Of a stretch of DNA of 64,000 nt, positions 9,939 through 44,237 are shown piece by piece. Source of the stretch: Bacteroidota bacterium (lineage in GTDB: Bacteria; Bacteroidota; Ignavibacteria; UBA10030; SZUA-254). The notes below the pieces were generated by a model. That model saw only the letters and a program-made list of their open reading frames with translations. It was not told the DNA's origin and searched no databases. Positions within the stretch are counted from its first letter, which is position 1; every line of letters begins with the position of its first letter. Both the position numbers and the translations under genes were made by a program. The stretch is taken from contig DATJGD010000012.1 of assembly GCA_035495255.1 (NCBI GenBank), positions 34,775 to 98,774 on the forward strand, in the 5' to 3' direction.

Positions 9939-11096
9939 ATGAATTTAGGAACGTCTGTGTCACGCTCTCAACGCTGCATCGGAATCCTCGGGGGAGGCCA
10001 GCTCGCGCGCATGTCCGCGCTCGCCGCTTACGAACTTGGATTCACGGTGGCGATCGTCGACAGGGATTACGGTTCTCCCGCAGGCAAATTGACTCACCAC
10101 GAGTTCGTCGGTTCGTTTGACGACGACGAACTTCTGCAGCGATTCTGCCAGGTGTCGGACGTTGTCACGCTCGAGAACGAGTTTGTCGATTACCACCGTC
10201 TCGAACTGATCGAGAAAATGAAGAAGACGGTCTTCCCCTCGCCGAAAACCATTTCGCTGATCCAGGATAAGCTCCAGCAGAAAACCATACTGAGGAAAAA
10301 GGGAATACCGGTCGCCGACTTTCTTGAAGTCGGCAGCGCCAGCAATCTTCTTCCCATTATCCGCAAGCTGTCCATTCCGTTTGTCCTGAAATCGCGAAAG
10401 ATGGGATATGACGGGTATGGGAATGCCCTGGTTTCAAATAAAGTCGAGTTTGACGAAGCATACGGGACCCTCACCTCGAGGCATGCGAACCTTCTCGCAG
10501 AGAAGTTCATCGATTTTCAGATGGAGCTCGCGGTGATGGTCGCGCGCACTGCCAAGGAGATCCGCGTCTACCCGCTCGTCCAGACCATTCAGCGCAATCA
10601 TATCTGCCATACAGTCATCGCTCCCGCCCAGGTTGAGCCGCGTGTCCTCGCCGACGCGCAGGAAATCGCCGTCGAGGCGGTCAAAGCCGTCCAGGGATTC
10701 GGGCTGTTCGGTGTCGAATTCTTTCTCGTGAAAAACAACAAACTCCTTGTCAATGAAATGGCGCCGCGGCCGCACAATTCGGGCCATTACACGATCGAGA
10801 CATGCGTGACGTCGCAGTTCGAAAACCACGTTCGCGCAGTCCTGGGATTACCGCTCGGCTCGACCGAAATGGTTTGCCGGCATGCCGTGATGGTGAACTT
10901 ACTCGGTTCGAGAAAGCCCTCTTCAGGAATGAAAAACTACAACACCGCGCTCCGGCATCCGAACGCGCACCTTCACATCTACGGCAAGAACGAGTCCAGG
11001 GCCGGAAGAAAGATGGGACACATTACCCTCACGGGCGACTCGCTTCCGCCGCTCATACAACAGTCCAAAAAGCTCGAATCAAAAATTCTCATATGA
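9939..11096 (+). CDS. purK: N5-carboxyaminoimidazole ribonucleotide synthase
   Basis: 385 aa ATP-grasp. [13 protein letters not shown]-terminus and ...[13 protein letters not shown]. Overlaps purE by ATGA. Confidence 0.9.
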
Positions 11097-11587
11097 AAAA
11101 ACCTCTTGTCGGCATTATCATGGGGAGCAAATCCGATCTCGCGACGATGCAGGAAGCTGCCGCTGTCTGTGAAGAGCTGAAGATTCCATACGAGATACAA
11201 ATTGTGTCGGCGCACCGCACGCCGCGCCGCATGGCGGCGTTCGCGTCTGCCGCGCTCAAACGGGGTATTAAGGTGATCATCGCGGGAGCAGGGGGCGCGG
11301 CGCATCTTCCCGGGATGACGGCGTCGTACACTCCCCTTCCCGTCATCGGCGTTCCGATCAAGACATCAAGCCTTGACGGGCTCGATTCTCTTCTCTCGAT
11401 AGCTCAAATGCCTGCGGGAATACCGGTGGCGACGGTCGCGATCGGCAACGCAAAAAATGCGGGTTTGCTTGCTGCGGAAATTTTGGCGCTCCAGGACAGA
11501 GCGCTGCTTCGGAGGTTGGTGCGGTACAGAAAATCCATCGAACAAAAATCGGTCAGGGACAACAAGAACCTCGCGTCACGGCGCTGA
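11093..11587 (+). CDS. purE: N5-CAIR mutase
   Basis: [20 protein letters not shown]...[13 protein letters not shown]...PVIGVPI, the classic PurE. Start at the ATG overlapping the purK stop (the ORF track extends artificially to 10802). Confidence 0.9.
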
Positions 11588-11591
11588 CGCG

Positions 11592-14500
11592 TTATTGATC
11601 GACCTTCTCCTTCTCCAGCTGTTCGTAGTACTTCCGGATAAGTTCTTCGTAATCTTTTGAATATTTGCCTTCCCGGATCTTCAGCATCTCTTCGCGGAGC
11701 CTGTTCTTCCCCTCCTGCGTCGTGAGGTCGATATCGCCGGGGCTCAGGTGCGGATATGTTTTTCCGGCTTCGGCTTTTCTTCGTTTTTCAAAATCCTTTT
11801 CACGCGCCGAGCGTGAAGCGTCAAGGAGCCGGGAAAGAATGCGGTCCTGCTTTTCTATTGTTTGCGGATTCACTTCTCCCTGGTTGAGGTCGCCGACAAT
11901 TTCCTGCATGTCGTGCTGTACTCTGTCGAGATCTCCGAGGAGCTTGCTGAAATCGCCTGTATTCTTTGCTTCTTCGGACAAATCCTGCAGGGATTTTTGA
12001 ACCGTAGACTGCTGCTGCGCGAGGCGCTGGTATGCCGCCTGTTGCTGGGTCGACATCCCCTGTCCCTCGCTGCCGCCTTGGCCCATGGCTTGTTGGGTCC
12101 CGCTGTTAATGCCTTGCTGCTGGCCGGCCATCTGGCCCAGGCGTCCGAGAAGGCCCGACATTCCGCTTCCGCCTTTACCGCCCTGCGACATCGCGTTGAT
12201 CGCCGACTGCATCATTGAGGCGGCGCGGTTGAGCGCGCCCATCGATTCGCCCTGCTTCTGGGACGTGCCGTTGGGATTCCGCGTTTCCATATTTTGCATC
12301 GCATCCTGCATCCCCTTTTGCGCGTTGCCCAGTTCCCTGCTCATCTCGGGGCTCACGGCAAAGGTCTTCTTTGAAAGGTCTGCCATGGCGTTTGAAACTT
12401 TATCGAGGTCGCTCATGACCTCGTTCTGATTTTCCGCGCTCTGCCGGAAGCTCGGCGAATTCGGATCAAGATCCTTCGAGGTATTCTTCAACGCTTCTTC
12501 ATCCTTGGAAAGCTGGAGTACGTTCTGCAGCTGCTTCTTCATTTGATTGAGGACCTGCTTCGTCTGTTCGTCCTGCATCTGTTTCTGAACATCCGTCAGC
12601 TCCTGCTCCATTTCCCCGAGGTCTTTCTCCGACTCCTCCTGATCCTTCTGAGCCTCCTGCATGTTCCCGCTTTTCATTTGCTGCGACGCGCTGTTCATCT
12701 TCTTGCCCGTCTGCTTGTCTTTCATCGACTGCTCGGCCTTCGACATCTGCTCAAGCGGCATTTCCTTGGGAAACTCCTCCATCTTGTCCTTGAGCGCCGA
12801 CGTTTCTTTTTGCATCGATCCCATTTGTTTTTCGAGATCGTCCTGCTTCTTTGAAAGCTCATCCTGCTTCTTCTGATCGGAAGACTTGGACTGCGCCGTC
12901 TGCTGTTTCAAATCCTGCTGCTGCTTCTGCATCTCGTCGGCGCGCTTGACGAGCTCGTCGAGTTTCTGCTCGATCGCGATCCTCTTTAAAAGCTCGACAG
13001 TCCGCTCGAGGTTTTTCCGGAATTGATCTTCCGAGCCTTTGAGCTGTTCCATCGCGCGCTGCATCTCCTCGGGCGAAAGCTGTTTCATGGACTCCTGCAG
13101 CTTCTTGAGGGCCTGCTGAAGATCTGGGGATTTCAACTGGTCAAGAAGTTTCTGCAATTCCTGGAACTTTTCCATCGTCTGATTGGAGAGCAGCTTGTTG
13201 TCGTCCATCTTTTTCACCGCCTCGTCCATCTTTTGGGCGGTCTGGTCGAGGTTTTTCTTTAATTCGTCGTACCGCTTGAGAAGCTCTTCGGCTTTCTTTT
13301 GCTGCTGCCAGTCGGCTTTGTTCCGGTTCTTCTGGAGGTCGCGATGAAGCGACTCTATGTTCTTCTTCAATTCCTGCGCTTCCTTCGTCGCGTTCTCCAT
13401 CGACTCCATCGATTGCTGCTGCGACTGGCTTACGTCGCTGAACACTTCATCGAGTGAGGGAAGGCGGATCAGGTATGTTTCGCTGCGGCCTGATTTCGGC
13501 CCGTTGATATTGTCGTTATCAAACACTTCGGCATAGTACGCGACCGCGTCTTCCGGCACGAGACGGAGGGAGGTCAGATCCCAATGGTAGGATACGTCGT
13601 TCGCCTGCAGAGTTTTTGACGGGAGAGGAACCTCGACAAATGAATATTCTTCGCGAACCTGCTCGTAGCGTGATTGTGCGAGGCGGTACGCAATGCGCAG
13701 CTTCGAGAACCCGAAATCATCCTTCAGGCGCATGAACAGATCAACCGACTTTTGTTCCGTCAGATCGATATTTTTTCCCGGCGTGATGATCTCGACGGTC
13801 GGGTTTTCGTCATGAAGCAGTTTGACGCTGTATTCGACCGGATCGATGTTCGATAATCCGCTGAGATCCTTCAGTTCGAAATGATACGTGAGTTCTTTTT
13901 TCACGCTGGCGGTCCCGGTCGCGGCGCCATTTGAGATTGTCAAGGGGACCGTCGTGTGATCGCTCCACATCACAAGAGCGGAAGAGAGAGGCTTACTCGC
14001 ATCAAGCCGTACGCTGAGCCGGGATCCCGGATAGGCAGTAACGTCTCCCTGATTGTCTTCCAGTGTCCGCGACGGGATTTTTGTGTAGCCGGGAGACTCG
14101 ACCTGAATCCGGAACGACCGGATAAGAGGGCGGTCGAGAACGCTGATTTTATAGTTGTCGCTCTTGACGTCTTCGGCGGAGGCGTAATACTCCGTGGTCG
14201 TCCTGATGTTTGAAATCTCGGTTTCAAAGAGCCCCGCTGATTTGGGAACGAGATTGAGGGTCTCAAAATCTACCTGCCCCTCCTGCCGGGTCGACAGCGA
14301 AATCTGCCGCGGAGACTTGCCGCGGACACGAACGGTCACCGGCACGGATTGGCCGCGAACAGCGTCAATGTTGCCGGGTTCGACGGTGAGCTGAAGCGGC
14401 ATCGACGCCGCGAACGATGTTCCAAAATTGATGACTCTATAGAATGAATCGAACATCCCGAGCTGGGGAATCACGAAGACAAGCAGAATCAGCGCTGCGG

Positions 14501-15011
14501 CGTACAGAACGGTCTTCCGGATCTTCCGGACGCGCATGTCGCTGACGGCGTCGGTAAAGTTGAGGGGTTGCGCGTTTGTATATAAGTCGCTGAACGAAGC
14601 ATCGATGAGAGGCAGCGAATAGTGTCCGGTCAGCGCGTCTTTGTTCTCGTAGACCTGCATGGCATCGAGAAGGCGGTCCCGGACCTGAGGAAAATGTGAG
14701 CCTACTTTTTCCGCGAGAGCATGATGATCCTGCGATCTCGCCAACAGGGGCCGGACGAGGAGCCAGGCAGCCGCTGCTGCGACGACCGCGAGGGCGGCCG
14801 CGAAGAGGATCGTTCGCCCGATAACGCCGAAGGTGAAAACTTCTTCGAGCAGCGTCACGGCAAAGATCGCCGCAAACGCGATGAGCAGCGTCGCGAGCGT
14901 TCCATAGAGCACGCGCAACCGAAGCTCCCGGGTTCCGACGGCCTCAAGCCGGCGGAGGATCTCATTATAGGATGTTGATACGCCTGACATTATTAATGGG
15001 TCAACGCCCAT
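11592..15011 (-). CDS. giant membrane-anchored coiled-coil / Gln-Gly-rich low-complexity protein (architecture resembles the TIGR02302/DUF4175 family)
   Basis: 1139 aa. Three N-terminal TM helices, a ~400-aa beta-rich domain, a ~450-aa K/E/Q/M-rich coiled coil, a Gly/Gln-rich tract (GGKGGSGMSGLLGRLGQMAGQQQG...) and a conserved-looking C-terminus. An alternative start at M8 (14990) would abut the upstream gene's stop. The family name is from memory of that architecture, not a search. Confidence 0.75.
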   Translation of the reverse strand: MGVDPLIMSGVSTSYNEILRRLEAVGTRELRLRVLYGTLATLLIAFAAIFAVTLLEEVFTFGVIGRTILFAAALAVVAAAAAWLLVRPLLARSQDHHALAEKVGSHFPQVRDRLLDAMQVYENKDALTGHYSLPLIDASFSDLYTNAQPLNFTDAVSDMRVRKIRKTVLYAAALILLVFVIPQLGMFDSFYRVINFGTSFAASMPLQLTVEPGNIDAVRGQSVPVTVRVRGKSPRQISLSTRQEGQVDFETLNLVPKSAGLFETEISNIRTTTEYYASAEDVKSDNYKISVLDRPLIRSFRIQVESPGYTKIPSRTLEDNQGDVTAYPGSRLSVRLDASKPLSSALVMWSDHTTVPLTISNGAATGTASVKKELTYHFELKDLSGLSNIDPVEYSVKLLHDENPTVEIITPGKNIDLTEQKSVDLFMRLKDDFGFSKLRIAYRLAQSRYEQVREEYSFVEVPLPSKTLQANDVSYHWDLTSLRLVPEDAVAYYAEVFDNDNINGPKSGRSETYLIRLPSLDEVFSDVSQSQQQSMESMENATKEAQELKKNIESLHRDLQKNRNKADWQQQKKAEELLKRYDELKKNLDQTAQKMDEAVKKMDDNKLLSNQTMEKFQELQKLLDQLKSPDLQQALKKLQESMKQLSPEEMQRAMEQLKGSEDQFRKNLERTVELLKRIAIEQKLDELVKRADEMQKQQQDLKQQTAQSKSSDQKKQDELSKKQDDLEKQMGSMQKETSALKDKMEEFPKEMPLEQMSKAEQSMKDKQTGKKMNSASQQMKSGNMQEAQKDQEESEKDLGEMEQELTDVQKQMQDEQTKQVLNQMKKQLQNVLQLSKDEEALKNTSKDLDPNSPSFRQSAENQNEVMSDLDKVSNAMADLSKKTFAVSPEMSRELGNAQKGMQDAMQNMETRNPNGTSQKQGESMGALNRAASMMQSAINAMSQGGKGGSGMSGLLGRLGQMAGQQQGINSGTQQAMGQGGSEGQGMSTQQQAAYQRLAQQQSTVQKSLQDLSEEAKNTGDFSKLLGDLDRVQHDMQEIVGDLNQGEVNPQTIEKQDRILSRLLDASRSAREKDFEKRRKAEAGKTYPHLSPGDIDLTTQEGKNRLREEMLKIREGKYSKDYEELIRKYYEQLEKEKVDQ

Positions 15012-15697
15012 ACCACGATATTTGTTCCAAACTGAAGCGCCTCCTGGCGTTTCTCCGGTGAATCGCCATGCACTTCAGGGTCGTTCCAGGCGTCGCTGGG
15101 GTTCGACTCAAATGTATAATAGAGGACAAGCCTCCCGTTGTGAAAAAGCCCGAAGCCCTGCGGCGGCTTGCCGTCGTGCTCGTGCGTCTTTGGGGGGCCT
15201 TTCGGAAATTCAAACTGGCAGTGATAGAGGCCGTACGAGAACGGCAGCTCGACAAGATTCTGCGACGGGAAAATCTTCTTTACTTCGCGGCGGAACGCTT
15301 TGTCCATCCCGTAATCATCGTCGGCATACATGAACCCGCCGTTTTCAAGATATGCCCGGAGCCGCTGAATCTCGACGTCGGTGAACGAGATGTTGCCGTG
15401 GCCCGTCAAAAAGATAAAGGGATAGGAAAAAAACTTGTCGCTCATGATATCGACGAACTCGTACACCGGCTCAACCTGGACGAGCGTGTTCTGCCGGACA
15501 AAGTTCAGAAGGTTTACTTCACCCTGGGGATCATTGTACCAGTCTCCGCCCCCGGAGTATTTCAGGCGGGCAATCTTCAGTGAGCTGTTGACACCGGTCC
15601 CCTGGGGAAATGCAGCATAACAGATCAAAACCGTCAGCACAAAAGCGAACATAGTCCTCATCATACTATAAAAAGGTAACCAAGATAGGGAAAACAT
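14993..15697 (-). CDS. exported hypothetical protein (DUF4159-like), translationally coupled to the giant gene downstream
   Basis: 234 aa. Signal-peptide-like MMRTMFAFVLTVLICYAAFPQ. Its stop overlaps or abuts the start of the 1139-aa gene. The family assignment is tentative. Confidence 0.6.
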   Translation of the reverse strand: MFSLSWLPFYSMMRTMFAFVLTVLICYAAFPQGTGVNSSLKIARLKYSGGGDWYNDPQGEVNLLNFVRQNTLVQVEPVYEFVDIMSDKFFSYPFIFLTGHGNISFTDVEIQRLRAYLENGGFMYADDDYGMDKAFRREVKKIFPSQNLVELPFSYGLYHCQFEFPKGPPKTHEHDGKPPQGFGLFHNGRLVLYYTFESNPSDAWNDPEVHGDSPEKRQEALQFGTNIVVWALTH

Positions 15698-15808
15698 GCA
15701 ACCGGCGCCCTACCCCGTACGTTGAAAATCTGGCGATAATTGGTTATACTATGATAATACTCTACAAAACCCGTCTGTAATACTCGCAAACGAAAGGATT
15801 TTACGAAA

Positions 15809-17815
15809 ATGAGTGCTGTACACAGGGTGCTCGTCACCCTTTTCTTGTCTATGATGATCTATGCCTGCGCCCCAAAAACGTCGGACATTGTGGTTCTCGA
15901 AGTGGGCCCGTCGAAGGTCACCATGAGCGAATATGAGAGTTTCTTCACACGCAACAGCGGCGGCTGGGACGTCGCCAAGCAAAGCTCGATGGAGGAACGG
16001 GAAAGATTTCTCGATCTTCTCACAAACTACAAGCTGAAGCTCCGGGACGCGTACGACAAGAATCTTATCAATGATTCCGACATCGTTCGGGAGCTGCGGG
16101 AATACAGAACAAGCCTTGCCTCGACATATATTCTCGACCGCGAACTCACCGAGCCGGGCGTGAAGCTTCTGTACGAACGTCGCAAGGAGTACATTCGCCC
16201 GCAGCACATTCTCCTGTCGTTAAAACCGGATGCCTCCCCCGAAGAGACACTGAAAGCCTACTCGAAGGCGATGGAGATTATCCGCCTCGCGGCGTCGGGC
16301 CAGAGCTTTGATTCTCTCACGATGCAGTATTCGAGCGATCCCTCGACGAAGACGAATCGCGGAGACCTTTATTATATTACGACCGGAACGCTCGTGAAGC
16401 CGTTTGAAGACGCGATGTACAGCATTCCAAAAGGAAAGATCGGCAGCACGCCTGCCCGTTCATCGTTCGGCTATCATATCATCAAGATCCTCGACCGTGA
16501 GCCGACGCGCATCGTCAAGGCGCGTCATATCATGTCCCGTTTCAAATCGCAAACTCCCGACTCTTCAGAAGCCTCCGAAGCTCTTGCGCGCGTTCAGGGC
16601 TATGCGGACAGCCTAAAGAAGGGATGGGACTTCGCCAAGCTCGCGACGAAGGTTTCAGAGGATCCGGGAAGCGCGCCGAATGGCGGCGACCTTGGATGGT
16701 TTGAGCGGCGCCGGTGGGTTCTCCCGTTCGACGAAGCGGTCTTCAAACTTCGCCTCGGCGAAACGTCTTCGATCGTCCGGACTCCGTTCGGCTACCACAT
16801 TATCCGCATCGACAGTCAGAAATCGATTCCACCGTTTACGGACGCTGCGTTCAGAGATGAACTCAAGAAGATGTATCAGCAGCACCGCTACAGCGAAGAC
16901 TTCGCTGACTATGTCGCAAAAATGAAAACAGAATACGCGTTCGAGTTTAATGAGGAGGCGTTTAACGCTCTTGTGGCGCGCCTCGACTCCACAAAACTCA
17001 TCGGCGACAGCGCGTGGGACGACGGCATTCCTGCGGATGTCCGCGCTCTTCCTCTGCTGAAGATCAATCACAGATCGATCTCCGTCGATACGGTCGTCGC
17101 AGCCCTCGGCAACCGGGCGGAGTTCCGCAACACGTCCCTGCGGCGCGCGGACCTCAGGCCGCGCATTGACCGCATCGCCGAGTCGCTGCTTCTCGAAGCC
17201 AAGTCGGGGAAACTCGAGGCCCAGTATCCCGAGTTCGCCTCGTTAATGAAGGAGTATGACGACGGCGTTGTGCTGTATAAGGCGGAGCAAATGGAAGTGT
17301 GGAACAGAAACGTCGTTTCCGATTCGTCGCTGCGAAGCTACTACGAAGAGCACAAGGCCAAATTCATGTTCCCCGAAAAAGTCAACATCGCCGAAATCTT
17401 TGTCTCGACCGACACGATGGCCGCCAAGCTGTACGATTCGCTCTCCCGCGGCGCCGATTTTGCGACACTTGCGAAGCGGCATTCGGAAGATGTCGATCTC
17501 GGATCAAAGGGCGGCGAGCGGGGATTTCTTCCCGTCGACACCGATTCGCTCACAAAACTGGGAACGACGCTTCAGGCCGGCGAATACACTGAGCCGAAAC
17601 AGGTCGAAGAGGGCGGATTCGTCATCGTGAAATTGCTCGGGCGCCAGGCAGCCCGCCAGAAGACGTTCGACGAAGCGGGAGCCGAGTTATCAAACTCCTT
17701 CCAGGACACGAATTCAAAGCTCCTTGAACAGCAGTGGCTCGATCGTGTAAAAGGCCGCTATCCGGTGAAGCAATACAAGGAACGGCTGGTCGACGCCTTC
17801 AAAAAGGCACAATAA
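15809..17815 (+). CDS. periplasmic peptidyl-prolyl cis-trans isomerase, SurA/PpiD-like lipoprotein with two parvulin domains
   Basis: 668 aa. N-terminal signal/lipobox (..MMIYAC). Two PpiC/parvulin cores (SFGYHIIKILD and TPFGYHIIRIDS) separated by chaperone-like helical regions. Confidence 0.8.
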   Translation: MSAVHRVLVTLFLSMMIYACAPKTSDIVVLEVGPSKVTMSEYESFFTRNSGGWDVAKQSSMEERERFLDLLTNYKLKLRDAYDKNLINDSDIVRELREYRTSLASTYILDRELTEPGVKLLYERRKEYIRPQHILLSLKPDASPEETLKAYSKAMEIIRLAASGQSFDSLTMQYSSDPSTKTNRGDLYYITTGTLVKPFEDAMYSIPKGKIGSTPARSSFGYHIIKILDREPTRIVKARHIMSRFKSQTPDSSEASEALARVQGYADSLKKGWDFAKLATKVSEDPGSAPNGGDLGWFERRRWVLPFDEAVFKLRLGETSSIVRTPFGYHIIRIDSQKSIPPFTDAAFRDELKKMYQQHRYSEDFADYVAKMKTEYAFEFNEEAFNALVARLDSTKLIGDSAWDDGIPADVRALPLLKINHRSISVDTVVAALGNRAEFRNTSLRRADLRPRIDRIAESLLLEAKSGKLEAQYPEFASLMKEYDDGVVLYKAEQMEVWNRNVVSDSSLRSYYEEHKAKFMFPEKVNIAEIFVSTDTMAAKLYDSLSRGADFATLAKRHSEDVDLGSKGGERGFLPVDTDSLTKLGTTLQAGEYTEPKQVEEGGFVIVKLLGRQAARQKTFDEAGAELSNSFQDTNSKLLEQQWLDRVKGRYPVKQYKERLVDAFKKAQ

Positions 17816-17873
17816 GGACATCGGCGCGCGCAGTGAATGGCTCGCGGTGCCCCAAATTTCATAGAGCAACATA

Positions 17874-18734
17874 GTGCCGGCCCCAGCGTACTATAATAGT
17901 ATATGGCTCGCGGCACTCCTGCTTGTCGCCGCGTGCCGCGAAGAGAAACACGCGGACATCATTGCCCGCGTCGGAACCGTCGAGCTTACCCGGGCCGAGG
18001 CCTACGCGCATATCGATACGTCGGCATCCAGCATTGATCTCCAGCTTCAGGCGTACACGACATCCTGGATCAATTCGGAGTTGCTTCACCAGGAAGCAGA
18101 GCGCCAGAAGATCGAAGGATCGGACGAAGCCGAACGAAAGCTCTCGGACGCCCGGAAGCAGATGGTGAACCAGATGTTTCTCGATCACTATATGAAGTCT
18201 GATTCCGGAACGATTCACGAGCAGGAGCTCCACAATTATTATGACGCGCATGAGGCAGAATTTATCGCGCACGATCTCATGCTCAAACTGCGCATCGCGG
18301 TGTTCACTTCGCGGGATCGCGCGAGCGCATTCACAACAGGATTTATGAAAACGTCGAACTGGGACTCGGTCCTTGCTGAACCTTCCATCGCTTCGGGCCT
18401 GGTCCGCTCCTCGCTCCCCCAGTATTACTCTCAGCATACGCTGTTCCCGCCGGAGTTGTGGAGAATCGCGACAACGCTCTCGATCGACGACATCTCATTC
18501 CCGGTAAAAATATCCTCCGGATATGCCATCGTCCAGCCGATCGGAGCCGCGCGGGAGGGAAAACCGCTGCCGTTCGAACTGGTCCGCGATGAAATATATC
18601 AGCGGCTCCTCATCGAGCACCGCCGCACCAGGTACGACGCGCTGTTAGGAACCCTTCGACAGCGGTATGCTGTTGAAGTATTCACGGGTTCATTCCGGCA
18701 AGCAGATACGACACATCTTCAAACTCATGAATAA
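17874..18734 (+). CDS. SurA-N-terminal-domain chaperone-like lipoprotein with a degenerate parvulin-like C-terminus
   Basis: 286 aa. Lipobox LLLVAAC. Helical SurA_N-like region. C-terminal ..SSGYAIVQPI resembles a decayed parvulin core. Its stop overlaps the surA start. Confidence 0.6.
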   Translation: MPAPAYYNSIWLAALLLVAACREEKHADIIARVGTVELTRAEAYAHIDTSASSIDLQLQAYTTSWINSELLHQEAERQKIEGSDEAERKLSDARKQMVNQMFLDHYMKSDSGTIHEQELHNYYDAHEAEFIAHDLMLKLRIAVFTSRDRASAFTTGFMKTSNWDSVLAEPSIASGLVRSSLPQYYSQHTLFPPELWRIATTLSIDDISFPVKISSGYAIVQPIGAAREGKPLPFELVRDEIYQRLLIEHRRTRYDALLGTLRQRYAVEVFTGSFRQADTTHLQTHE

Positions 18735-20013
18735 ACAAACTCTCATTGCAGTCATCTGCCTCGCTGCTCTCCGTGTTCCGGACCGTGCGGCAGGCCAGTC
18801 GACCGTCGTCGACCGCATCGTCGCGGTGGTCGGGAGAGAATGCATTCTCCTCTCCGACGTCACCGCGCAGATCGATTTTTACACGCTCAACAATCACGTC
18901 GATCCTTCGACGCCGGGGCTGCGGGACCAGGTCCTCCAGGCAATGATCGACAAGAAACTCATGCTCTCGAAGGCCGCCGAAGACACGACGATCAACGTCC
19001 GCGAAGAAGACGTGACGAATCAGCTCGATGCCCTTGTCGCTCAACGCATACAGCAGGTCGGCTCCGAAAAGCGGCTTGAAGAGCTGTACGGAATGCCGAT
19101 CAGCAAGATGAAGCGCGAGTTCCGCGACGAGACGAGAAAAGAGCTCATGGTGCAGATGCTGCAGCAAAACAAATTCGGCGATGTTCAGGTCAGCCGCCGC
19201 GAGGTCGAGGAGTTTTACGCCACGTATAAGGACAGTTTGCCGAAAGTGCCGGAAGAACTGGAACTTTACCACATCTTCCGCCTGCCGAAGGTCAGCGAAT
19301 CCTCACGCGCGGCAACGATGGCAAAGGCGCAGAAGATTATCGATTCGATCAAGGCTGGAGGCGATTTTGCCGATTTCGCGCGCCGGTATTCTGAGGACAA
19401 GGGTACCGCGCAGTTCGGAGGCGACCTGGGGTTTGCCCGCCGCGGACAATTTCTCAGGGAATTCGAGGAAGCTGTTTTCTCCCTCAAGGAAAACCAGATC
19501 GCAAACATTGTTGAAACTCCGCTGGGACTTCACATCATGCAGCTGCTTGAACGGCGCGGCGAGTCCGTTCACGCCCGGCACATTCTTTTCAAAGTAGAGC
19601 GCACCGACGCCGATGCCGAATCGACGAAGGCATTTCTCCGTTCGCTGAAGGACAGCGTTCTCCGCGGGGGCGATTTTTCCGATCTCGCCAAACGGTATTC
19701 GGAAGACAAAGAATCGGGCCCGCAGGGGGGCCTCCTGGGAAGCTTTTCAACCTCGCAGTTTGACCAGTCGCTGCTCGATGTCGTGAAGGACATGAAGGAG
19801 GGCGATGTCAGCAATCCGGCGGAAGTGAACTACGGAACATCCAAGGGTTATCACATTATTTATCTCAAGAAACGAATTCCGGAACATACGATCAATATCA
19901 CCGACGACTGGAAGCGGCTCGAAGCGCTCGCCGTCAACGCGAAGCGAAACCAGCTCTACCTCGACTGGCTCAAGCAGCTGCGGTCGGAAATTTACTGGGA
20001 AACACGACTATAA
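18727..20013 (+). CDS. surA: periplasmic chaperone / PPIase SurA (two parvulin domains)
   Basis: Start at MNKQTLIAVICLAAL (signal peptide). SurA_N region followed by two parvulin domains (..TPLGLHIMQLLE.. and ..TSKGYHIIYLKK..). Confidence 0.8.
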   Translation: MNKQTLIAVICLAALRVPDRAAGQSTVVDRIVAVVGRECILLSDVTAQIDFYTLNNHVDPSTPGLRDQVLQAMIDKKLMLSKAAEDTTINVREEDVTNQLDALVAQRIQQVGSEKRLEELYGMPISKMKREFRDETRKELMVQMLQQNKFGDVQVSRREVEEFYATYKDSLPKVPEELELYHIFRLPKVSESSRAATMAKAQKIIDSIKAGGDFADFARRYSEDKGTAQFGGDLGFARRGQFLREFEEAVFSLKENQIANIVETPLGLHIMQLLERRGESVHARHILFKVERTDADAESTKAFLRSLKDSVLRGGDFSDLAKRYSEDKESGPQGGLLGSFSTSQFDQSLLDVVKDMKEGDVSNPAEVNYGTSKGYHIIYLKKRIPEHTINITDDWKRLEALAVNAKRNQLYLDWLKQLRSEIYWETRL

Positions 20014-20025
20014 TTACTTTCTTCC

Positions 20026-21018
20026 ATGGAAACCACAACCACTAACGACGTCGAATCCGTACAAGCTCTCAAAGCAAGCTTCGAGACGATCAAGAAAGAA
20101 ATCTCGAAGGTCATCGTCGGACAAGAGCCGATCATCGAGCAGTTGCTCATCTCGCTTCTTGCGCGTGGCCATTGCCTGCTGGTCGGAGTCCCCGGGCTCG
20201 CGAAAACGCTCCTGATCAAAACGCTCGCGGAGGTCATGGATCTCAAGTTCAGCAGAATCCAGTTCACACCTGACCTCATGCCGTCGGACATTACGGGGAC
20301 CGAAATCCTCGAAGACAACCGCACGACCGGAGAGAAATCGTTCAAGTTTATCCGCGGCCCTGTCTTCGCGAATATCCTGCTTGCCGACGAAATTAACAGG
20401 ACTCCACCGAAGACGCAGTCCGCGCTGCTCGAAGCCATGCAGGAACATCATGTCACCGCCGCCGGGCAGAAGTATACGCTCGAAGAGCCATTTTTTGTTC
20501 TCGCGACGCAGAACCCTATCGAACAGGAAGGAACGTATCCCCTTCCCGAGGCGCAGCTCGACCGTTTCATGTTCAACCTCTGGCTCGACTATCCGAGCGA
20601 GCGGGAAGAGCTGGAGATCGTGAAATCCACGACGAGCATGTACGTCCCGGAATTACGGCACGTCCTTCGCAAAGAAGAGATCCTGCACTATCAGAACCTG
20701 GTCCGAAGAGTCCCGGTTGCCGACAACGTCATCGCGTTCGCGGTGAACCTCGTCGGACGGACACGTCCCAAGTCGAACATGGCGCCGAAGTTCATCGGCG
20801 ACTGGCTCAGCTGGGGTGCGGGGCCCCGGGCGTCTCAATTCCTGATTCTTGGCGCGAAGACGCGCGCAATTCTTGAAGGCCGGCATACTCCCGACATTGA
20901 CGACGTGCGGCATGTCGTCGGCCCCGTCCTTCGTCATCGCATTGTGCCGAACTTTAACGCGGAAGCTGACGGGGTTACCGCCATGCAGATCATCGATAAA
21001 TTATTAGAAAATGATTGA
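20026..21018 (+). CDS. MoxR-family AAA+ ATPase
   Basis: 330 aa. Walker A GVPGLAKT, Walker B LLADEINR, sensor ...ATQNP..., typical MoxR length. 12 nt downstream of surA; overlaps the next gene. Confidence 0.9.
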   Translation: METTTTNDVESVQALKASFETIKKEISKVIVGQEPIIEQLLISLLARGHCLLVGVPGLAKTLLIKTLAEVMDLKFSRIQFTPDLMPSDITGTEILEDNRTTGEKSFKFIRGPVFANILLADEINRTPPKTQSALLEAMQEHHVTAAGQKYTLEEPFFVLATQNPIEQEGTYPLPEAQLDRFMFNLWLDYPSEREELEIVKSTTSMYVPELRHVLRKEEILHYQNLVRRVPVADNVIAFAVNLVGRTRPKSNMAPKFIGDWLSWGAGPRASQFLILGAKTRAILEGRHTPDIDDVRHVVGPVLRHRIVPNFNAEADGVTAMQIIDKLLEND

Positions 21019-23107
21019 GAGGCCCTCAATGATCAAACGAATACTGTTTTGGTCACTTTTCACGGTGGCTACGATCGCGCAGCTTGCCCCTGCGCAAACC
21101 GCGCGCAAGTATTGGGTGTACTTTACCGATAAAGGCCCCAGGTATCCTGCAACCGGAACGCTTTCAAAGAGTTCTCCGGGATATGAACGAGCCGTCAGCA
21201 GCATCACTCCGGCCGCACTCGCGCGGCGGGCGAAAGTACTTCCCGCGGGCGACGTTGTCGATGCGGGCGATCTTCCCCTCTACCAGCCCTATCTTCAGCG
21301 GATCGGACAAACAGGGGCAATTCGGCAGCGGGAATCGCGATGGTTGAATGCCGCAAGTTTCATCGCGACCGCCGATCAGCTTGCGATCATCTCAGGCTAT
21401 TCGTTCGTGAAGAGCGTAACATCTGTCAGGACGATGACAGTGCGAAGCAATTATCAACAGGAATTCCCGCCTGCGGTGCCCTTCGCCAAAACGGTCTCGC
21501 TCGATTACGGGCCTTCCGCAACTCAGAACCAGGTCATCAACACTCCGTCGCTCCACGAGCTCGGGATTACCGGACGCGGAGTCATCATCGGAATGCTCGA
21601 TACCGGTTTTCGCTGGAGAGCGCATGAGTCGCTGCAGTCGCGGTATGTCATCGCCGAACACGATTTTATTCAGAATGACGACACGACGGCAAACCAGGCC
21701 GGCGATTCGTTCAATCAGGATCAGCACGGGACCCTGACGTTTTCGACCATCGGCGGCTACATGCCGGGAAAGCTTATCGGGCCGGCGTTTAACGCGGGAT
21801 TTATTCTGGCAAAAACAGAGTACGTCCCTACCGAAACGAAAATAGAAGAAGACAATTGGGCGAACGCCATTGAGTGGATGGAAGGGCTCGGCGTAGATGT
21901 CGCGAGCAGCTCCCTCGGGTATGATAATTTTGATCCGCAGGGATCGCTTGATTCCAGCGATTACCGCTGGGTCGACGGCGACTTTAACGGCAGAACTTCC
22001 GTTACCGCGATCGCCGCGATCCATGCTGCGAGGCTCGGAGTAGTGGTTTGTAATGCGATGGGAAACGAAGGCAACGGGGATGGCGTCACCGCAACGATGC
22101 TGACGCCGGCCGATGCTGACAGCATTGTTTCAGTTGGAGCCGTGAATTTCTCGCGGGTGCTGGCCGGCTTCAGCTCGACCGGCCCCACGAATGACGGACG
22201 GACCAAGCCCGATGTCGTTGCTCCGGGGGTGAGCGTCTACTGTGCTTCCACCTCGGGGCCCGCTTCATATTTCAGCGTGAGCGGGACTTCGCTCGCGACT
22301 CCGCTGACCGGAGGAACTTCCGCGCTTATTCTCTCGGCACGGCCGGAGCTCACACCGATCCAGGTCCGCAATGCATTACATAACACCGCGATCCCGATTC
22401 TCGACAGCATCTATTATCCGTCGAGCCCGAATAATTTTACCGGTTGGGGGCTCATCGACGCGTTTAACGCGGCCCTTTCCTTCGGTCCGATCTTCAGCAA
22501 CCAGCCGCTGGTTGATTCCGTGAGCTCGGTAAGCATCGATATCGCGTCGAAGTTCGGGATTCGCCCGTCCGCCGTGTACTTTCATTACGCGATCGGCGGG
22601 AGCGCTGTCTACGATTCCATTCCTATGACGCTCGATTCTTCGATGTTCTTCCCGACCTCCGGCAGATACCGCGTCGCGGTTCCGCCGCAGGCAATCGGGA
22701 CTCTCGTTCACTTTTACATGACTGCGGCCGACAGCGCGTCGCTTTCGTATCAGAGTCCGGCTCCCGTGTTGAACAACGTCTGGCAGCTGAACTACGGAAC
22801 AACCGGCGTGAAGACCTCGTCTCAGTATCCGGCGGAGTACGCACTCCTTCAAAACTATCCCAATCCGTTTAATCCGTCGACCCGCATTTCCTACGATCTG
22901 CCGAAGCGGGAACACGTCCGCGTTCAGGTGTTTGACGTGCTCGGCCGGCTCATGGCAACTCTCGTCGACGAAGTGCAGGACGCGGGGAGCGGCGCATCGC
23001 GTTCTCCCGTCGTGTTCAACGCGGCCAACATGCCGAGCGGAATTTACTTTTACAGGATTACGACTCCATCGTTTACCTCGACGAAGAAGATGATGCTTGT
23101 TCGTTGA
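21011..23107 (+). CDS. secreted S8 subtilisin-like serine peptidase with a T9SS C-terminal sorting domain
   Basis: Signal peptide (MIKRILFWSLFTVATIAQLAPAQ), catalytic D (GMLDTGF), H (DQHGT) and S (SGTSLATP). The C-terminal ~80 aa (YPNPFNPSTRISYDL...IYFYRITT...KKMMLVR) is a Por/T9SS type-A CTD. Overlaps both neighbours. Confidence 0.85.
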   Translation: MIERPSMIKRILFWSLFTVATIAQLAPAQTARKYWVYFTDKGPRYPATGTLSKSSPGYERAVSSITPAALARRAKVLPAGDVVDAGDLPLYQPYLQRIGQTGAIRQRESRWLNAASFIATADQLAIISGYSFVKSVTSVRTMTVRSNYQQEFPPAVPFAKTVSLDYGPSATQNQVINTPSLHELGITGRGVIIGMLDTGFRWRAHESLQSRYVIAEHDFIQNDDTTANQAGDSFNQDQHGTLTFSTIGGYMPGKLIGPAFNAGFILAKTEYVPTETKIEEDNWANAIEWMEGLGVDVASSSLGYDNFDPQGSLDSSDYRWVDGDFNGRTSVTAIAAIHAARLGVVVCNAMGNEGNGDGVTATMLTPADADSIVSVGAVNFSRVLAGFSSTGPTNDGRTKPDVVAPGVSVYCASTSGPASYFSVSGTSLATPLTGGTSALILSARPELTPIQVRNALHNTAIPILDSIYYPSSPNNFTGWGLIDAFNAALSFGPIFSNQPLVDSVSSVSIDIASKFGIRPSAVYFHYAIGGSAVYDSIPMTLDSSMFFPTSGRYRVAVPPQAIGTLVHFYMTAADSASLSYQSPAPVLNNVWQLNYGTTGVKTSSQYPAEYALLQNYPNPFNPSTRISYDLPKREHVRVQVFDVLGRLMATLVDEVQDAGSGASRSPVVFNAANMPSGIYFYRITTPSFTSTKKMMLVR

Positions 23108-25283
23108 GGGTATGGCCATTGCGGAGATCTCCATATCGCTAGGGGGAAATGTCCTCGTTTTCCTGCTGTTCGGACTCGTCCTCGCCGCTCTTGCTCTTCT
23201 GTTCTACCGCTTCACGCTTCCGCCGCTTCCGCAGCGAACCCGATCCCTTCTTTCGCTGCTGCGGTCATTTGCCCTGATCTTTCTCCTCATGGCGCTGTTC
23301 GAGCCCGTGTCGCGCTTCGTCCGCCACACCGAACAACCCCCTGTCGTCGCCGTGCTTCTGGATAACTCCCAGAGCATGACGATCAACAGCTCTCCGGCGG
23401 CGCGCAAAAAGCAGGTTCAGGATCTCATCGGGCAGGGGCTGCTTCACAAGCTTCCTTCGGGCGCCCGGCTGCAGTATTACCCGTTCGACGCGAAAATGAA
23501 AACTGTCGCCGCCGCCAGCCCCGATTCGGTGACGTTCACGGGCGAAGTGACGAACATTTCGGATGCCTTCAGCGGCCTCAAGCCTCTGCTTGCGAAGGAA
23601 AACATACAGTCCGTTCTTCTCGTGAGCGACGGAAACTACACGGTCGGAAAGAACCCGTTGTATGATGCCGAAGGGCTGGGGATTCCCGTCTACACCGTCG
23701 GCGTCGGCGATACGAGCGAGCAGCAGGACATTGTCGTCGAGAAAACTACTACCAATGCCCTCGCGTACTCCGGCATGCGAACTCCGGTCGATGTCGTCAT
23801 CCGGAGCTCAGGGTACGACGGTACGAAGACGGAAGTGACATTATCCGAAAGCGGCACGGTGCTGGACCGCTCGGTAGTGACGCTTCAAAAAGGGACTCAT
23901 GAATATACCCTGAAGATGCATTTTCTTCCGATGGAGGAGGGAATAAAAAAACTTTTGGTAAACGTCACCCCCATTTCCGGTGAACTCACGACCCAAAACA
24001 ACAGCCGCTCGTTTTTTGTAAAAGTTCTGAAAAGCAAGCTCAATGTCGTTATTGTCGCAGGCGCTCCGAGCCCGGACCTCTCTGCGCTCCGGCAGGCGCT
24101 TGTTGAGGAGGGCCACTTCAGCATCCACTCTTTTGTGCAAAGGACCGCCGAAAGCTTTTACGAGGGCAGCCTTTCACAGGCGGCTCTCGACAGCGCCGAT
24201 TGTATGGTACTCATCGGTTTTCCCTCCCAGGCTTCAAACCCCTCTCTGATTCAGCGCTTACGGGACAACATCGTGCGGCGTAAACTCCCTCTCTTTTTTG
24301 TCGGCGGGAAAGGAATGAGCTACGGTAAGCTCCAGGCGTTGGAGGCGGTGCTGCCGTTCGGGTGGTCCGGCGAAAATCCGACCGAACTGCTCGTGAGCCC
24401 GATAGTTGAAGACCGGCAAAAGCATCATGCGCTGGTCGAACTCGAGAATAAATTTACATCCGAGAGCTGGCAGCAGCTTCCGCCCATTTATAAAGCACAG
24501 ACTATTTTTCACGGCCGCCCCGAGTCCGAGATACTCGTAACCGCGACGCTGCAGAGCATTAATCTGGGAGAACCTCTCGTCGTCATCCGGAAATCGTTAG
24601 GGCAGAAGTCTTTCGCAGTTACGGGTTACGGCATCTGGCGGTGGAGATTGTTGAGCGGCGACAACCAGCAGGCGAAGGAATTTCTTACCGACCTGGCTTC
24701 AAATGCCATCCGCTGGTTAACGACGCCGGAAGAGAACAAGCGGGTGAAGATCACGCCGAATCAGGAAGCGTTCACCACGGCAGACGAGGTCGGATTCAGC
24801 GGGCAGGTGTATGATGAGGAACTTCGGCCGGTCGATAACGCGGAGGTCGCCGTGCAGGTCACGCACGACGGTGAATCCATTCCCGTGGCTCTCACCGCTG
24901 TCGGCAACGGGTTGTACGAGGGTTCCGCCCAGGGATTACGGGCCGGAGACTATACCTTTTCCGGAGGCGCAACCCGCAACGGCATATCACTCGGAGAAGA
25001 CAAGGGAAAATTTTCTGTCGGCCAGGTAAGCGTGGAGTATATCGAGACAAAAATGAATAAGCAGCTTCTTGAACAGCTTGCGTACCGCACAGGCGGATCT
25101 TACAGAGACATTTCTTCCGCGGAAGCGATTACAGCTGACCTCCCCACGGGGACGGCATTCCGTTCGAGAGATCTCACCCAGGCGAGCGAGATCGAGCTGT
25201 GGAACTGGAAGTATCTTGCCGTCATCGTCATTGCACTGTTCTCCGCCGAATGGTTTGTGCGGAAAAGAAACGGAATGCTGTAA
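23097..25283 (+). CDS. membrane protein with an N-terminal double-TM domain, a vWA domain (BatA-like) and a C-terminal TM anchor
   Basis: 728 aa. Two N-terminal TM helices, then VVAVLLDNSQSM (MIDAS DxSxS) ... VSDGNY ... VGVGD, a large extracytoplasmic region and a terminal hydrophobic helix. Overlaps the S8 gene by 11 nt. Confidence 0.7.
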   Translation: MFVEGMAIAEISISLGGNVLVFLLFGLVLAALALLFYRFTLPPLPQRTRSLLSLLRSFALIFLLMALFEPVSRFVRHTEQPPVVAVLLDNSQSMTINSSPAARKKQVQDLIGQGLLHKLPSGARLQYYPFDAKMKTVAAASPDSVTFTGEVTNISDAFSGLKPLLAKENIQSVLLVSDGNYTVGKNPLYDAEGLGIPVYTVGVGDTSEQQDIVVEKTTTNALAYSGMRTPVDVVIRSSGYDGTKTEVTLSESGTVLDRSVVTLQKGTHEYTLKMHFLPMEEGIKKLLVNVTPISGELTTQNNSRSFFVKVLKSKLNVVIVAGAPSPDLSALRQALVEEGHFSIHSFVQRTAESFYEGSLSQAALDSADCMVLIGFPSQASNPSLIQRLRDNIVRRKLPLFFVGGKGMSYGKLQALEAVLPFGWSGENPTELLVSPIVEDRQKHHALVELENKFTSESWQQLPPIYKAQTIFHGRPESEILVTATLQSINLGEPLVVIRKSLGQKSFAVTGYGIWRWRLLSGDNQQAKEFLTDLASNAIRWLTTPEENKRVKITPNQEAFTTADEVGFSGQVYDEELRPVDNAEVAVQVTHDGESIPVALTAVGNGLYEGSAQGLRAGDYTFSGGATRNGISLGEDKGKFSVGQVSVEYIETKMNKQLLEQLAYRTGGSYRDISSAEAITADLPTGTAFRSRDLTQASEIELWNWKYLAVIVIALFSAEWFVRKRNGML

Positions 25284-25341
25284 CAGACATTCTGCACTCC
25301 ATATTCCGTCCGATGCCGCCCTTTTCCAATAGGGGCGTGGA

Positions 25342-44197: not shown

Positions 44198-44237
44198 TAT
44201 TTTTTCATTTCCTGATCTTCGACAAAATCCTTTAAAT

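Follow-up and report, generated by a model that had tools for sequence, protein, structure and literature searches.

A DUF4175-family inner-membrane protein paired with DUF4159 in an Ignavibacteria genome: predicted periplasmic domains and a putative link to MoxR/von Willebrand-domain envelope operons

Operons that combine a MoxR-type (MRP) ATPase with DUF58 and BatA/BatB proteins are described as the aerotolerance (Bat) operon of Bacteroides, as BB0170-0176 in Borrelia and as RL3499-RL3502 in Rhizobium leguminosarum. A BatA-type protein resides in the inner membrane and places its von Willebrand (vWA) domain in the periplasm (PMC5700661), and the Rhizobium MRP MoxR RL3499 is required for membrane integrity and morphology (PMC3893208). 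In two other phyla, operons of this kind encode proteins of the DUF4175 family. These proteins begin with two or three TM helices, after which comes a long extracytoplasmic part containing a Gln/Gly-rich tract. The alphaproteobacterial form is ~850 aa long and thus shorter than the form of Ignavibacteria and Gemmatimonadota (~1110-1250 aa). We take the family to be related to the alphaproteobacterial TIGR02302 'low-complexity' membrane proteins.

The window analysed here, meaning the whole 64-kb stretch of DNA, carries a complete gene of this family on the minus strand (11592..15011, ATG start); the parts of its 1139-aa product are given below by coordinates on the same strand. A Pfam profile search matched PF13779 (DUF4175) with 87 bits (E 1.1e-24), above the curated gathering threshold of 27.3 bits, over aa 304-957 and only profile positions 190-770 of 825. 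We found 395 homologs, and among the 120 listed all but a few truncated entries were ~1100-1150 aa long, with 94-100 % query coverage and 43-71 % identity, which places the ORF far beyond chance. NCBI names the close homologs 'DUF4175 family protein', and ~11,000 cluster representatives match. A search of NCBIfam returned no family at E≤0.01, TIGR02302 included, and no DNA-level tandem repeat was found. The literature searched contained no experimental datum for any DUF4175 protein, the sole mention being a partial N-terminal match in Acinetobacter baumannii AdvA. The sequence-only reading of this DNA had given the function of the protein as unknown. The protein is no orphan but a member of a named, very widespread and uncharacterised family and is paired with DUF4159. 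Because the same protein is encoded in MoxR/von Willebrand-domain envelope operons of other phyla, the gene is of a kind already known and not a new one.

Immediately upstream on the same strand lies the gene for a 234-aa exported DUF4159 protein (14993..15697; PF13709, 209 bits, E 6.6e-62), which starts with a hydrophobic segment that may be a signal or an anchor. The two ORFs overlap by 19 nt, with the TAA stop of DUF4159 falling within the DUF4175 ORF (sequence ATGGGCGTTGACCCATTAA), and DUF4159 adjoins DUF4175 in 63 of 76 related loci. Translation of DUF4175 is probably coupled to that of DUF4159, in agreement with the coupling that the sequence-only reading had proposed. The DUF4159 clan is class I glutamine amidotransferase-like (PMC4702930), and the protein matched PDB 4i66 weakly. 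At the other end, the purE stop (TGA, 11585-11587) and the DUF4175 stop (11592-11594) converge with the 4-nt gap reported before. A 7-bp GC-rich hairpin between them (11572..11591), found by pattern match only, is a possible bidirectional terminator. The DUF4159-DUF4175 pair is separated from a divergent gene block by an intergenic region in the ORF map (15698..15808), in which promoter-like hexamers occur on both strands (15722-15750 on plus, 15781-15754 on minus) as consensus matches only.

The claim that the 1139-aa protein is membrane-anchored was confirmed by Kyte-Doolittle analysis, which placed three hydrophobic segments near aa 33-55, 63-86 and 166-188. The first two form a helical hairpin (TM1-TM2, aa 33-86, 14754..14915; AF2 helices 13-59 and 63-90), connected by a 7-aa loop that is almost without K and R. 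A conserved helical loop with K/R-rich flanks follows (aa 87-165, 14517..14753), and TM3 (aa 166-188, 14448..14516) leads the chain to the periplasm according to hydrophobicity, AF2 and the positive-inside pattern. In 81 and 112 homologs, the mean number of K+R residues was 4.5-4.9 before TM1, 0.2 in the TM1-TM2 loop, 2.6 after TM2, 3.0-3.4 before TM3 and 1.3-1.8 after TM3. This positive-inside pattern is conserved over 193 homologs. The same three-TM layout occurs across three phyla, including Planctomycetota homologs and the PF13779-carrying homologs of Gemmatimonadota, and Cys is nearly absent. We therefore predict from the sequences an N-in protein with the TM1-TM2 hairpin, a cytoplasmic loop of ~80 aa, TM3 and then ~950 periplasmic residues. 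The loop is 83-84 aa long in all homologs; G104, D112, L135 and F152 are invariant in homolog set A1, while in set A2 conservation reaches at least 90 % at A100 and D112, making the loop a candidate contact site for cytoplasmic partners. The earlier suggestion that the bulk of the protein is periplasmic is thus supported by the positive-inside pattern, by the tandem Ig-like domains described below and by the exported partner.

The AF2 full-length model (pLDDT 78, pTM 0.43, inter-domain geometry uncertain) places three Ig-like beta-sandwiches in tandem ahead of 18 helices, each 13-64 aa long. The Ig-like domains lie at about aa 207-292, 297-398 and 405-516 (13458..14396) and were modelled with pLDDT 80-92. 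Foldseek, which had been suggested for this part of the protein, matched tandem Ig-like arrays, namely complement C3/C5 MG-domain arrays and FN3 triplets (E 2e-6 to 1e-4 over ~350 columns). The domains contain invariant residues, conserved acidic motifs mark the domain boundaries (VLDRPL, PDExP, DDFGF and FDNDNxxGPK), and the beta part is 311-322 aa long across homologs. The '~400-aa N-terminal beta domain' of the sequence-only reading needs correction: beta structure covers ~310 aa (aa 207-516), and the ~190 aa that precede it consist of TM helices and the cytoplasmic loop.

The helical region (aa 519-940, 12192..13457) contains Q 14.5, K 13.5, E 10.9 and M 7.1 %; K+E+Q+M make up 46 % of it versus 16 % of the beta region, in line with the composition noted earlier. 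Both peptides quoted at that time recur in the translated ORF: the helical stretch spans about aa 558-603, and GGKGGSGMSG...GQGM spans aa 944-985. The region is not the 'extreme', heptad-like coiled coil once proposed, since it is predicted as a segmented stack of helical bundles made of the 18 separate helices, the longest of 64 aa, with 17 breaks at conserved Pro/Gly. Modelled as a fragment, it reached pTM 0.62, with a core at about aa 668-938 of pLDDT 84-95. Its best fold matches were vinculin, alpha-catenin and talin rods, all weak (Foldseek E 2.7e-3 to 0.3). The length is fixed at 422 aa (interquartile range 422-422 in A1 and 417-423 in A2). This invariance, together with conserved sequence and break motifs, marks it as a folded structure and not a spacer.

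A Gly/Gln/Met tract follows (aa 941-987, 12051..12191; G 34, Q 19, S 13 and M 11 %). To call it a low-complexity tract is misleading: its consensus, GGxGGMGMAGLMxRLxQMxGxQxGINxGTQ, is conserved, and it was modelled as a conserved helix flanked by two short low-confidence loops (pLDDT <50 at aa 944-949 and 980-984). The layout of the family fits the protein in its three TM segments, its conserved positive-inside pattern and this tract. The C-terminal helical module (aa 988-1139, 11595..12050) is 148-152 aa long across homologs, is conserved and contains, with invariant residues, the strongest motifs of the family (QERILSRLLD, RERDYEKRR and YxKDYEELIRKYF). In the Paludisphaera operon, a protein of 185 aa that is encoded separately aligns with the final ~110 aa of this module (about 1028-1136); judging by this alignment, DUF4175 is modular and its C-terminal module is a gene of its own in Paludisphaera. 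Taken together, the model predicts that the ~600 aa after the Ig-like domains form stacked helical bundles, including a conserved Gly/Gln/Met hinge and a charged, highly conserved C-terminal module.

The link to MoxR/vWA genes that the sequence-only reading had suspected was found in five loci of other phyla, three from Gemmatimonadota (Gemmatirosa and two further) and two from Planctomycetota (a Planctomyces plasmid and the Paludisphaera chromosome). In Gemmatimonadota the order is [vWA/GATase1-like membrane protein]-[~335 aa]-[TPR+Peptidase_MA_2]-DUF4159-MoxR-DUF58-BatA/vWA-DUF4175, with DUF4175 last. In Planctomycetota it is MoxR-DUF58-BatA-vWA-DUF4175(short)-helical protein-185-aa protein. 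The operons of both phyla include a homolog of a 728-aa membrane protein of the window that has two N-terminal TM helices (23097..25283, plus strand). This protein had no Pfam match, but it shares 26 % identity over 730 aa (E 2e-45) with the GATase1_like/vWA protein of the Gemmatirosa operon, matches an 815-aa protein of the Paludisphaera operon (E 2e-20) and reads DNSQS at a MIDAS-like DxSxS motif.

In the window, the system is split and arranged back-to-back, with DUF4159-DUF4175 on one strand and a divergent block beside it on the other. The block starts with three genes for PPIC-type PPIase/SurA-like periplasmic chaperones (15809..20013, plus; Pfam Rotamase and SurA_N), followed by a MoxR-type AAA+ ATPase (AAA_3; 20026..21018, plus; PF07726, E 1.6e-64), an S8 peptidase with a T9SS C-terminal domain and the 728-aa vWA-like protein. 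The MoxR gene lies 4.3 kb from the DUF4159 start, and its product shares 54 % identity with the MoxR encoded in the Gemmatirosa DUF4175 operon. The arrangement of three PPIase genes before MoxR recurs in loci L003 and L048. Within the 64-kb window, neither DUF58 (tblastn with two DUF58 proteins and Pfam scans of the ORFs) nor BatA (PF07584 and tblastn with two BatA proteins) was detected, so that in this lineage the case for a MoxR link depends on gene order in other phyla, which are represented by only five loci.

Our best reading, which we hold with some confidence, is that an envelope complex of MoxR (MRP subfamily) and vWA proteins has the 1139-aa protein as its stalk or scaffold in the periplasm; the 'scaffold' role proposed earlier is plausible. 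In such a complex, the Ig-like array together with the helical rod would keep DUF4159 and the vWA/GATase-like domains of the periplasm at a constant spacing from the inner membrane. Cytoplasmic MoxR might engage the complex at the cytoplasmic loop with its near-invariant Asp112, where a DUF58-type vWA adaptor, if present, could join it. By comparison with the Rhizobium RL3499 MoxR operon, the role would probably be in envelope integrity or cell shape.

A different account makes DUF4159-DUF4175 an autonomous two-protein envelope module that acts at the division site independently of MoxR, whose vicinity in the window would then be incidental. The pair is located directly downstream of ftsZ, on the same strand and within 600 nt, in 24 of 66 Ignavibacteria-type loci, and at most 10 kb from ftsZ in 39 of 82; MoxR occurs within 10 kb in only 2 of these 82. 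Moreover, the N-terminal part of AdvA, an essential division protein of A. baumannii, is reported to match DUF4175 and to contain two TM helices (PMC7481262). However, the ftsZ adjacency comes from one related clade and is therefore not independent evidence, and the MoxR-DUF58-BatA operons that contain the gene in Gemmatimonadota and Planctomycetota lie away from ftsZ. The MoxR/vWA block of the window, which sits exactly between ftsZ and DUF4159, re-joins both sets, and we regard a MoxR-independent division module as possible but doubtful. It is unlikely, too, that the protein is a periplasmic molecular ruler, an idea of the sequence-only reading; a rigid Ig-like array with its helical rod would then define or gauge how far the outer membrane or peptidoglycan lies from the inner membrane. 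What suggests a ruler is only how strikingly constant the helical part is in length. Every segment barely varies in length (417-423 aa for the helical, 311-322 aa for the beta and 148-152 aa for the C-terminal part) among homologs sharing only ~30 % identity. The acidic boundary motifs, as read from the sequence, resemble Ca2+-rigidified linkers, and the inferred reach could be ~20 nm, from helices of 61-64 aa (~9 nm at 1.5 A per residue) and three Ig domains (about 10-12 nm at about 4 nm each). Constant length is equally expected of any folded multi-helix domain, though, and in the models the helices double back against each other, which leaves the end-to-end reach unfixed. The planctomycete homologs are split among separate polypeptides, which fits a single-chain ruler less easily, and no outer-membrane- or peptidoglycan-binding domain was detected with Pfam. 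A more far-reaching version, which we consider improbable, would make DUF4175 a periplasmic strut, calibrated in length and force-bearing, at or near the division site, with a Ca2+-stiffened Ig-like stalk and vinculin/talin-like bundles that link an ATP-driven (MoxR) inner-membrane complex to outer envelope layers. If true, DUF4175 would be a previously unrecognised, widespread trans-envelope tether whose helical bundles serve as a ruler or mechanosensitive element.

Met makes up 6-7 % of aa 519-1139, M744, M751, M901, M924, M951 and M1035 are invariant in A1, and three PPIase/SurA-like genes lie in the divergent block. From these observations, the helical region with its many Met and Gln residues could act in the periplasm as a holdase chaperone, or its methionines could serve as an oxidant sink; either role would connect it to the 'aerotolerance' phenotype described for Bat operons and to the neighbouring SurA-like genes. 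We think this very unlikely: conserved Met is compatible with ordinary helix-bundle cores, the Gemmatimonadota homologs are G/A/R/Q/E-rich instead of K/M-rich, and no similarity to known chaperones appeared in Pfam, sequence or fold searches. Composition alone, charged and helical, would point to a cytoplasmic SMC-like or cytoskeletal coiled-coil protein or to a surface adhesin, readings to which we give almost no credence. With three TM helices and a positive-inside pattern that is conserved, the C-terminal part comes to lie outside the cytoplasm. A Pfam scan found no SMC, ABC-ATPase, flagellar, adhesin or vinculin domain, and sequence and fold searches gave no solved structural homolog; the SMC-like or flagellar homology that would have refuted the sequence-only reading is thus absent. 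An SMC-like or cytoskeletal coiled coil was rejected on these grounds and because the protein has no uninterrupted coiled coil of >100 residues. Unlike the neighbouring S8 peptidase, it has no T9SS C-terminal domain.

The preferred reading, a periplasmic scaffold of a MoxR/vWA complex, can be set against several known systems. With other proteins of PF13779 the 1139-aa protein shares N-terminal TM helices, a large extracytoplasmic region, a Gln/Gly-rich tract and an uncharacterised function. It resembles vinculin, alpha-catenin and talin in its series of antiparallel 4-5-helix bundles with helices of ~15-60 residues, but the matches are weak (TM about 0.18, ~11 % identity) and thus indicate analogy, not homology; moreover, the bundles are periplasmic here and cytoplasmic there. 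An inner-membrane anchor, a long charged helical periplasmic region and possible coupling to an inner-membrane energy source recall TolA and TonB. Those proteins cross the membrane with a single TM helix and have an extended rod, either one helix or Pro-rich, as well as the proton-motive ExbBD/TolQR motor and a defined C-terminal outer-membrane/Pal-binding domain. These features are absent from the 1139-aa protein, which gave no sequence or fold match to either. In AdvA, only the N-terminal ~200 aa are reported to match, and an Ig-like or helical region is not described. From the Bat systems the locus differs in that the named BatA-E proteins include neither DUF4175 nor DUF4159 and that the window is without DUF58 and BatA. 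It resembles them in its MoxR and vWA-like membrane protein genes within 10 kb, and with Borrelia BB0173 the protein shares inner-membrane anchoring with periplasmic domains (PMC5700661).

The 1139-aa ORF at 11592..15011 (minus strand, ATG start) is real where the sequence-only reading had placed it, with full-length homologs, and both peptide strings quoted in that reading are present in its translation. We detected 395 homologs of the protein; among the 120 listed, all but a few incomplete entries are ~1100-1150 aa long, with 94-100 % query coverage and 43-71 % identity. Given these full-length homologs and the ORF checks, the gene is genuine and conserved. The TAA of the 234-aa ORF upstream (14993..15697, minus strand) sits 19 nt into the 1139-aa ORF, within ATGGGCGTTGACCCATTAA. 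At the other end, the reported 4-nt spacing to the convergent purE was confirmed (stops at 11585-11587 and 11592-11594). A 7-bp GC-rich hairpin at 11572-11591, called on both strands by a terminator scan and lacking a good T-run, overlaps the purE stop and spans this gap. The purE ORF as called (10802-11587, plus strand, 261 aa) overlaps purK by ~300 nt; its real start is probably an internal ATG at about 11105, since the AIRC domain begins only at residue 103. The composition is biased in residues 519-940 (Q 14.5, K 13.5, E 10.9 and M 7.1 %; K+E+Q+M 46 % versus 16 % in the beta region of the protein) and in residues 941-987 (G 34, Q 19, S 13 and M 11 %). At the DNA level, Tandem Repeats Finder detected no repeats behind this repetitive-looking protein.

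The protein is not an orphan, as it belongs to a recognised family, DUF4175 (Pfam PF13779; 87 bits, E 1.1e-24, cutoff 27.3). The upstream 234-aa protein matches DUF4159 over its full length (PF13709, E 6.6e-62). NCBIfam, including TIGR02302, gave no match for either protein; 'DUF4175 family protein' is already the NCBI and JGI name of the homologs. An exhaustive search with residues 1-560 as query matched 11,097 cluster representatives at E<=1e-3, of which 871 reach E<=1e-30; those of full length are mostly 1110-1200 aa long. A literature search found no experimental paper on DUF4175. The protein is thus a further member of a known uncharacterised family, and nothing in the window is unexpected for that family. 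We regard the identity and architecture, taken alone, as very probable.

Three hydrophobic segments lie at residues ~33-55, 63-86 and 166-188. In sets of 81 close and 112 distant homologs, K+R counts are 4.5-4.9 ahead of TM1, 0.2 in the 7-residue TM1-TM2 loop, 2.6 past TM2, 3.0-3.4 ahead of TM3 and 1.3-1.8 past TM3. From this distribution we predict a cytoplasmic N-terminus, an 83-84-aa cytoplasmic loop between TM2 and TM3, and ~950 C-terminal residues outside the cytoplasm, which agrees with the extracytoplasmic bulk proposed from the sequence. The three-TM layout is common to Gemmatimonadota and Planctomycetota homologs. Cysteine is absent from the window protein and makes up 0.09-0.15 % of residues across the family.

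A full-length AlphaFold2 model built from the 81-sequence alignment had a mean pLDDT of 78 and a pTM of 0.43. It places the strands at residues 207-516 in three beta-sandwich domains (~207-292, 297-398 and 405-516; pLDDT 80-92). In Foldseek searches of the PDB, this part matched the tandem MG domains of complement C3/C5/alpha2-macroglobulin as well as FN3 triplets and bacterial adhesin Ig arrays (E 2e-6 to 1e-4 across about 350 columns); as modelled, it is a generic tandem Ig-like array with no specific homolog. Its length is nearly fixed at 313-315 aa in close and ~30 % identical homologs. The residues most conserved in the family (VLDRPL, PDExPTxE, DDFGF and FDNDNxxGPK) fall at domain boundaries and in domain 3, and by eye these motifs resemble cadherin-type Ca2+-binding linkers, for which they are candidates.

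From residue 520 on, the model shows 18 helices, each 13-64 residues long (515 helical residues in all), and the short breaks between them coincide with the conserved motifs KSP, EEFPKEMP, LDPNS and KKTFAVSPEM. Residues 519-940 have a median length of 422 aa (IQR 422-422) in close homologs and 420 aa (IQR 417-423) in those ~30 % identical. The G/Q/M tract that follows had been labelled low-complexity, a misleading description: it carries the conserved consensus GGxGGMGMAGLMxRLxQMxGxQxGINxGTQ, with low-confidence loops in the AlphaFold2 model confined to residues 944-949 and 980-984. The C-terminal part is also nearly fixed in length (150-152 aa), and its last ~110 residues contain the strongest motifs of the family (QERILSRLLD, RERDYEKRR and YxKDYEELIRKYF).

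The window is a chromosomal segment of an Ignavibacteria-type bacterium, on which the dcw/fts cluster lies together with pur genes and a peptidase that has a T9SS sorting domain. Loci were scanned for with the alignment of close homologs, the distant alignment being too diverse for a locus search; the best 80 of 546 loci were all of Ignavibacteria type. The closest relatives of the window are Ignavibacteria/Bacteroidota MAGs. The DUF4175-DUF4159 pairing is tight: 76 of 82 related loci have enough upstream sequence, and in 63 of these DUF4159 is the adjacent upstream gene in the same orientation. Immediately ahead of DUF4159 is ftsZ in 24/66 loci, and it lies within 10 kb in 39/82; many related genomes (L001, L004-L007 and others) have ftsZ directly followed by DUF4159-DUF4175. 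In the window, a 9.5-kb block of opposite orientation (15698-25444) lies exactly between DUF4159 and ftsZ (25445-26623, minus strand). This plus-strand block, divergent from the DUF4159-DUF4175 pair, is also found in the closest relative, L003.

The block begins with three consecutive PPIC-type PPIase genes (15809-20013, plus strand), one with a SurA N-terminal domain, directly followed by MoxR (20026-21018, plus strand). This order is common to the window, L003 and the related locus L048, and suggests that periplasmic folding factors are co-expressed with the MoxR/vWA genes. Next comes the gene of an S8 subtilase (21011-23107, plus strand) that ends in a T9SS sorting domain (Por_Secre_tail); it overlaps MoxR and the following, vWA-like gene by a few nt each. 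It looks like a lineage-specific insertion common to the window and L003, because in L048 the vWA-like gene directly follows MoxR. The vWA-like gene (23097-25283, plus strand) encodes a 728-aa membrane protein with two N-terminal TM segments, a DNSQS (DxSxS) motif and no Pfam match. No DUF58 or BatA gene is present within the 64-kb window, and MoxR lies within 10 kb of DUF4175 in only 2/82 related loci. A LonC/LonB-like protease (AAA_32, LonC_helical and Lon_C domains) is encoded near the locus, at 3447-5894 on the plus strand; in 6/82 related loci a homolog lies downstream of DUF4175, no more than 10 kb away. A ~1-kb stretch of low G+C (0.49 versus about 0.55) at 44200-45280 separates mraZ (43757-44197, minus strand) from mfd (45284-48796, minus strand) and contains small ORFs only, such as a 95-aa Asn/Lys/His-rich one at 44880-45167. 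Rfam and tRNA scans of the whole window gave no match.

A tblastn search of plasmids with DUF4175 gave matches only in Gemmatirosa and Planctomyces and reached no alphaproteobacterial member. On the Gemmatirosa kalamazoonensis megaplasmid, the gene of the homolog (1268 aa; 25 % identity across 616 aa) closes a cluster of genes that share one strand, in the order a homolog of the 728-aa protein (E 2e-45), a long ORF, DUF4159 (recognised by tblastn), MoxR, DUF58, BatA_N+VWA+GATase1_like and DUF4175. Two further Gemmatimonadota contigs have the order GATase1_like (~770 aa), ~335-aa protein, TPR+Peptidase_MA_2, DUF4159, MoxR, DUF58, BatA/VWA and DUF4175. The TPR+Peptidase_MA_2 gene (~870 aa; L085 2435-5047, L086 2525-5158) and the ~335-aa protein, which has no Pfam match, both lie upstream of DUF4159, and no counterpart of either was found in the window. 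On the Planctomyces sp. SH-PL62 plasmid and the Paludisphaera borealis chromosome, the order is MoxR, DUF58, BatA, a ~815-aa homolog of the 728-aa protein, a short DUF4175 (~743 aa; three TMs and the beta region), a secreted helical protein and a 185-aa protein, the last two as separate genes (L087 14303-14860; L084 8515-10143). In two other phyla, DUF4175 thus belongs to one operon with MoxR, DUF58 and BatA/vWA, and the suspected MoxR/vWA link is borne out. The 185-aa protein aligns (pairwise E 1e-7, 24 % identity) to the window protein at residues ~1028-1136, a stretch that includes the motif YxxxYxxLIxxYYxxL, so the C-terminal module appears to be separable. A helical-region HMM detected no homology in the 542-aa and 666-aa helical proteins downstream of the planctomycete DUF4175; what looks like a fission/fusion relationship within the family is therefore supported, for the helical part, in the C-terminal ~110 aa only.

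Operons of the MoxR (MRP)-vWA 'Bat-like' kind occur very widely, and aerotolerance, stress tolerance, envelope integrity and cell shape have been linked to them; we know of no accepted mechanism for them. MoxR AAA+ ATPases act together with vWA-domain proteins (PMC9976466, PMC13036017), and the BatA-type BB0173 is an inner-membrane protein with a periplasmic vWA domain (PMC5700661). Membrane integrity and cell morphology depend on RL3499, an MRP-subfamily MoxR of Rhizobium leguminosarum (PMC3893208). We propose that DUF4175 would be the periplasmic stalk or scaffold of the MoxR/vWA system, positioning DUF4159 and the vWA/GATase1-like domains; the earlier idea of a periplasmic scaffold is reasonable. 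The cytoplasmic loop (residues 87-165), in which A100 and D112 are >=90 % conserved even among distant homologs, would be a likely handle for a cytoplasmic ATPase or adaptor. Family, architecture and stalk role combined are a reading we hold to be moderately probable.

An autonomous DUF4159-DUF4175 division-site module is supported in a single clade, where ftsZ adjoins the pair in related loci, and by the lead from AdvA, an Acinetobacter baumannii division protein with an N-terminal DUF4175 match (PMC7481262); this adjacency comes from one clade only, however, and the operons of other phyla contradict it. The invariant segment lengths suggest a molecular ruler, but a folded region explains them equally well. 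Composition, and composition alone, suggests a Met-rich chaperone or oxidant sink, yet it differs in the Gemmatimonadota homologs. The predicted topology and the absence of the relevant domains speak against a cytoplasmic SMC-like protein or an adhesin, and neither structure nor profile searches found a resemblance to SMC or flagellar proteins. A defence-system reading was dropped: PADLOC models were blank for DUF4175, DUF4159 and the 728-aa protein, and MoxR gave a weak DolB match only.

For the window itself the outcome is unremarkable: the protein can be recognised as belonging to a known but uncharacterised family. In general terms, DUF4175 is a large unstudied family (~11,000 sequence clusters) belonging to a long-unexplained system, and a vague 'coiled-coil/low-complexity' ORF now has a defined architecture, a DUF4159 pairing and MoxR-DUF58-BatA operons elsewhere. 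That DUF4175 forms the periplasmic stalk of a MoxR-DUF58-BatA complex is thereby a testable hypothesis. The coiled coil itself does not stand: the region is helical and not one long coiled coil, because it is modelled as 18 helices separated by breaks and its fold matches are of the bundle type. Modelled alone with 16 sequences, residues 519-1139 gave a pTM of 0.62 and a pLDDT of 84-95 over residues ~668-938. A PDB sequence-profile search matched nothing but de novo designed helical bundles (all E above 0.004), and Foldseek searches of the PDB with the helical part gave nothing at E<1e-3. The best folds were vinculin (2.7e-3), alphaE-catenin (6.7e-3), the HMP-1 M domain and talin, matches which indicate that the modelled helical part is a stack of antiparallel helical bundles like those of vinculin, catenin and talin.
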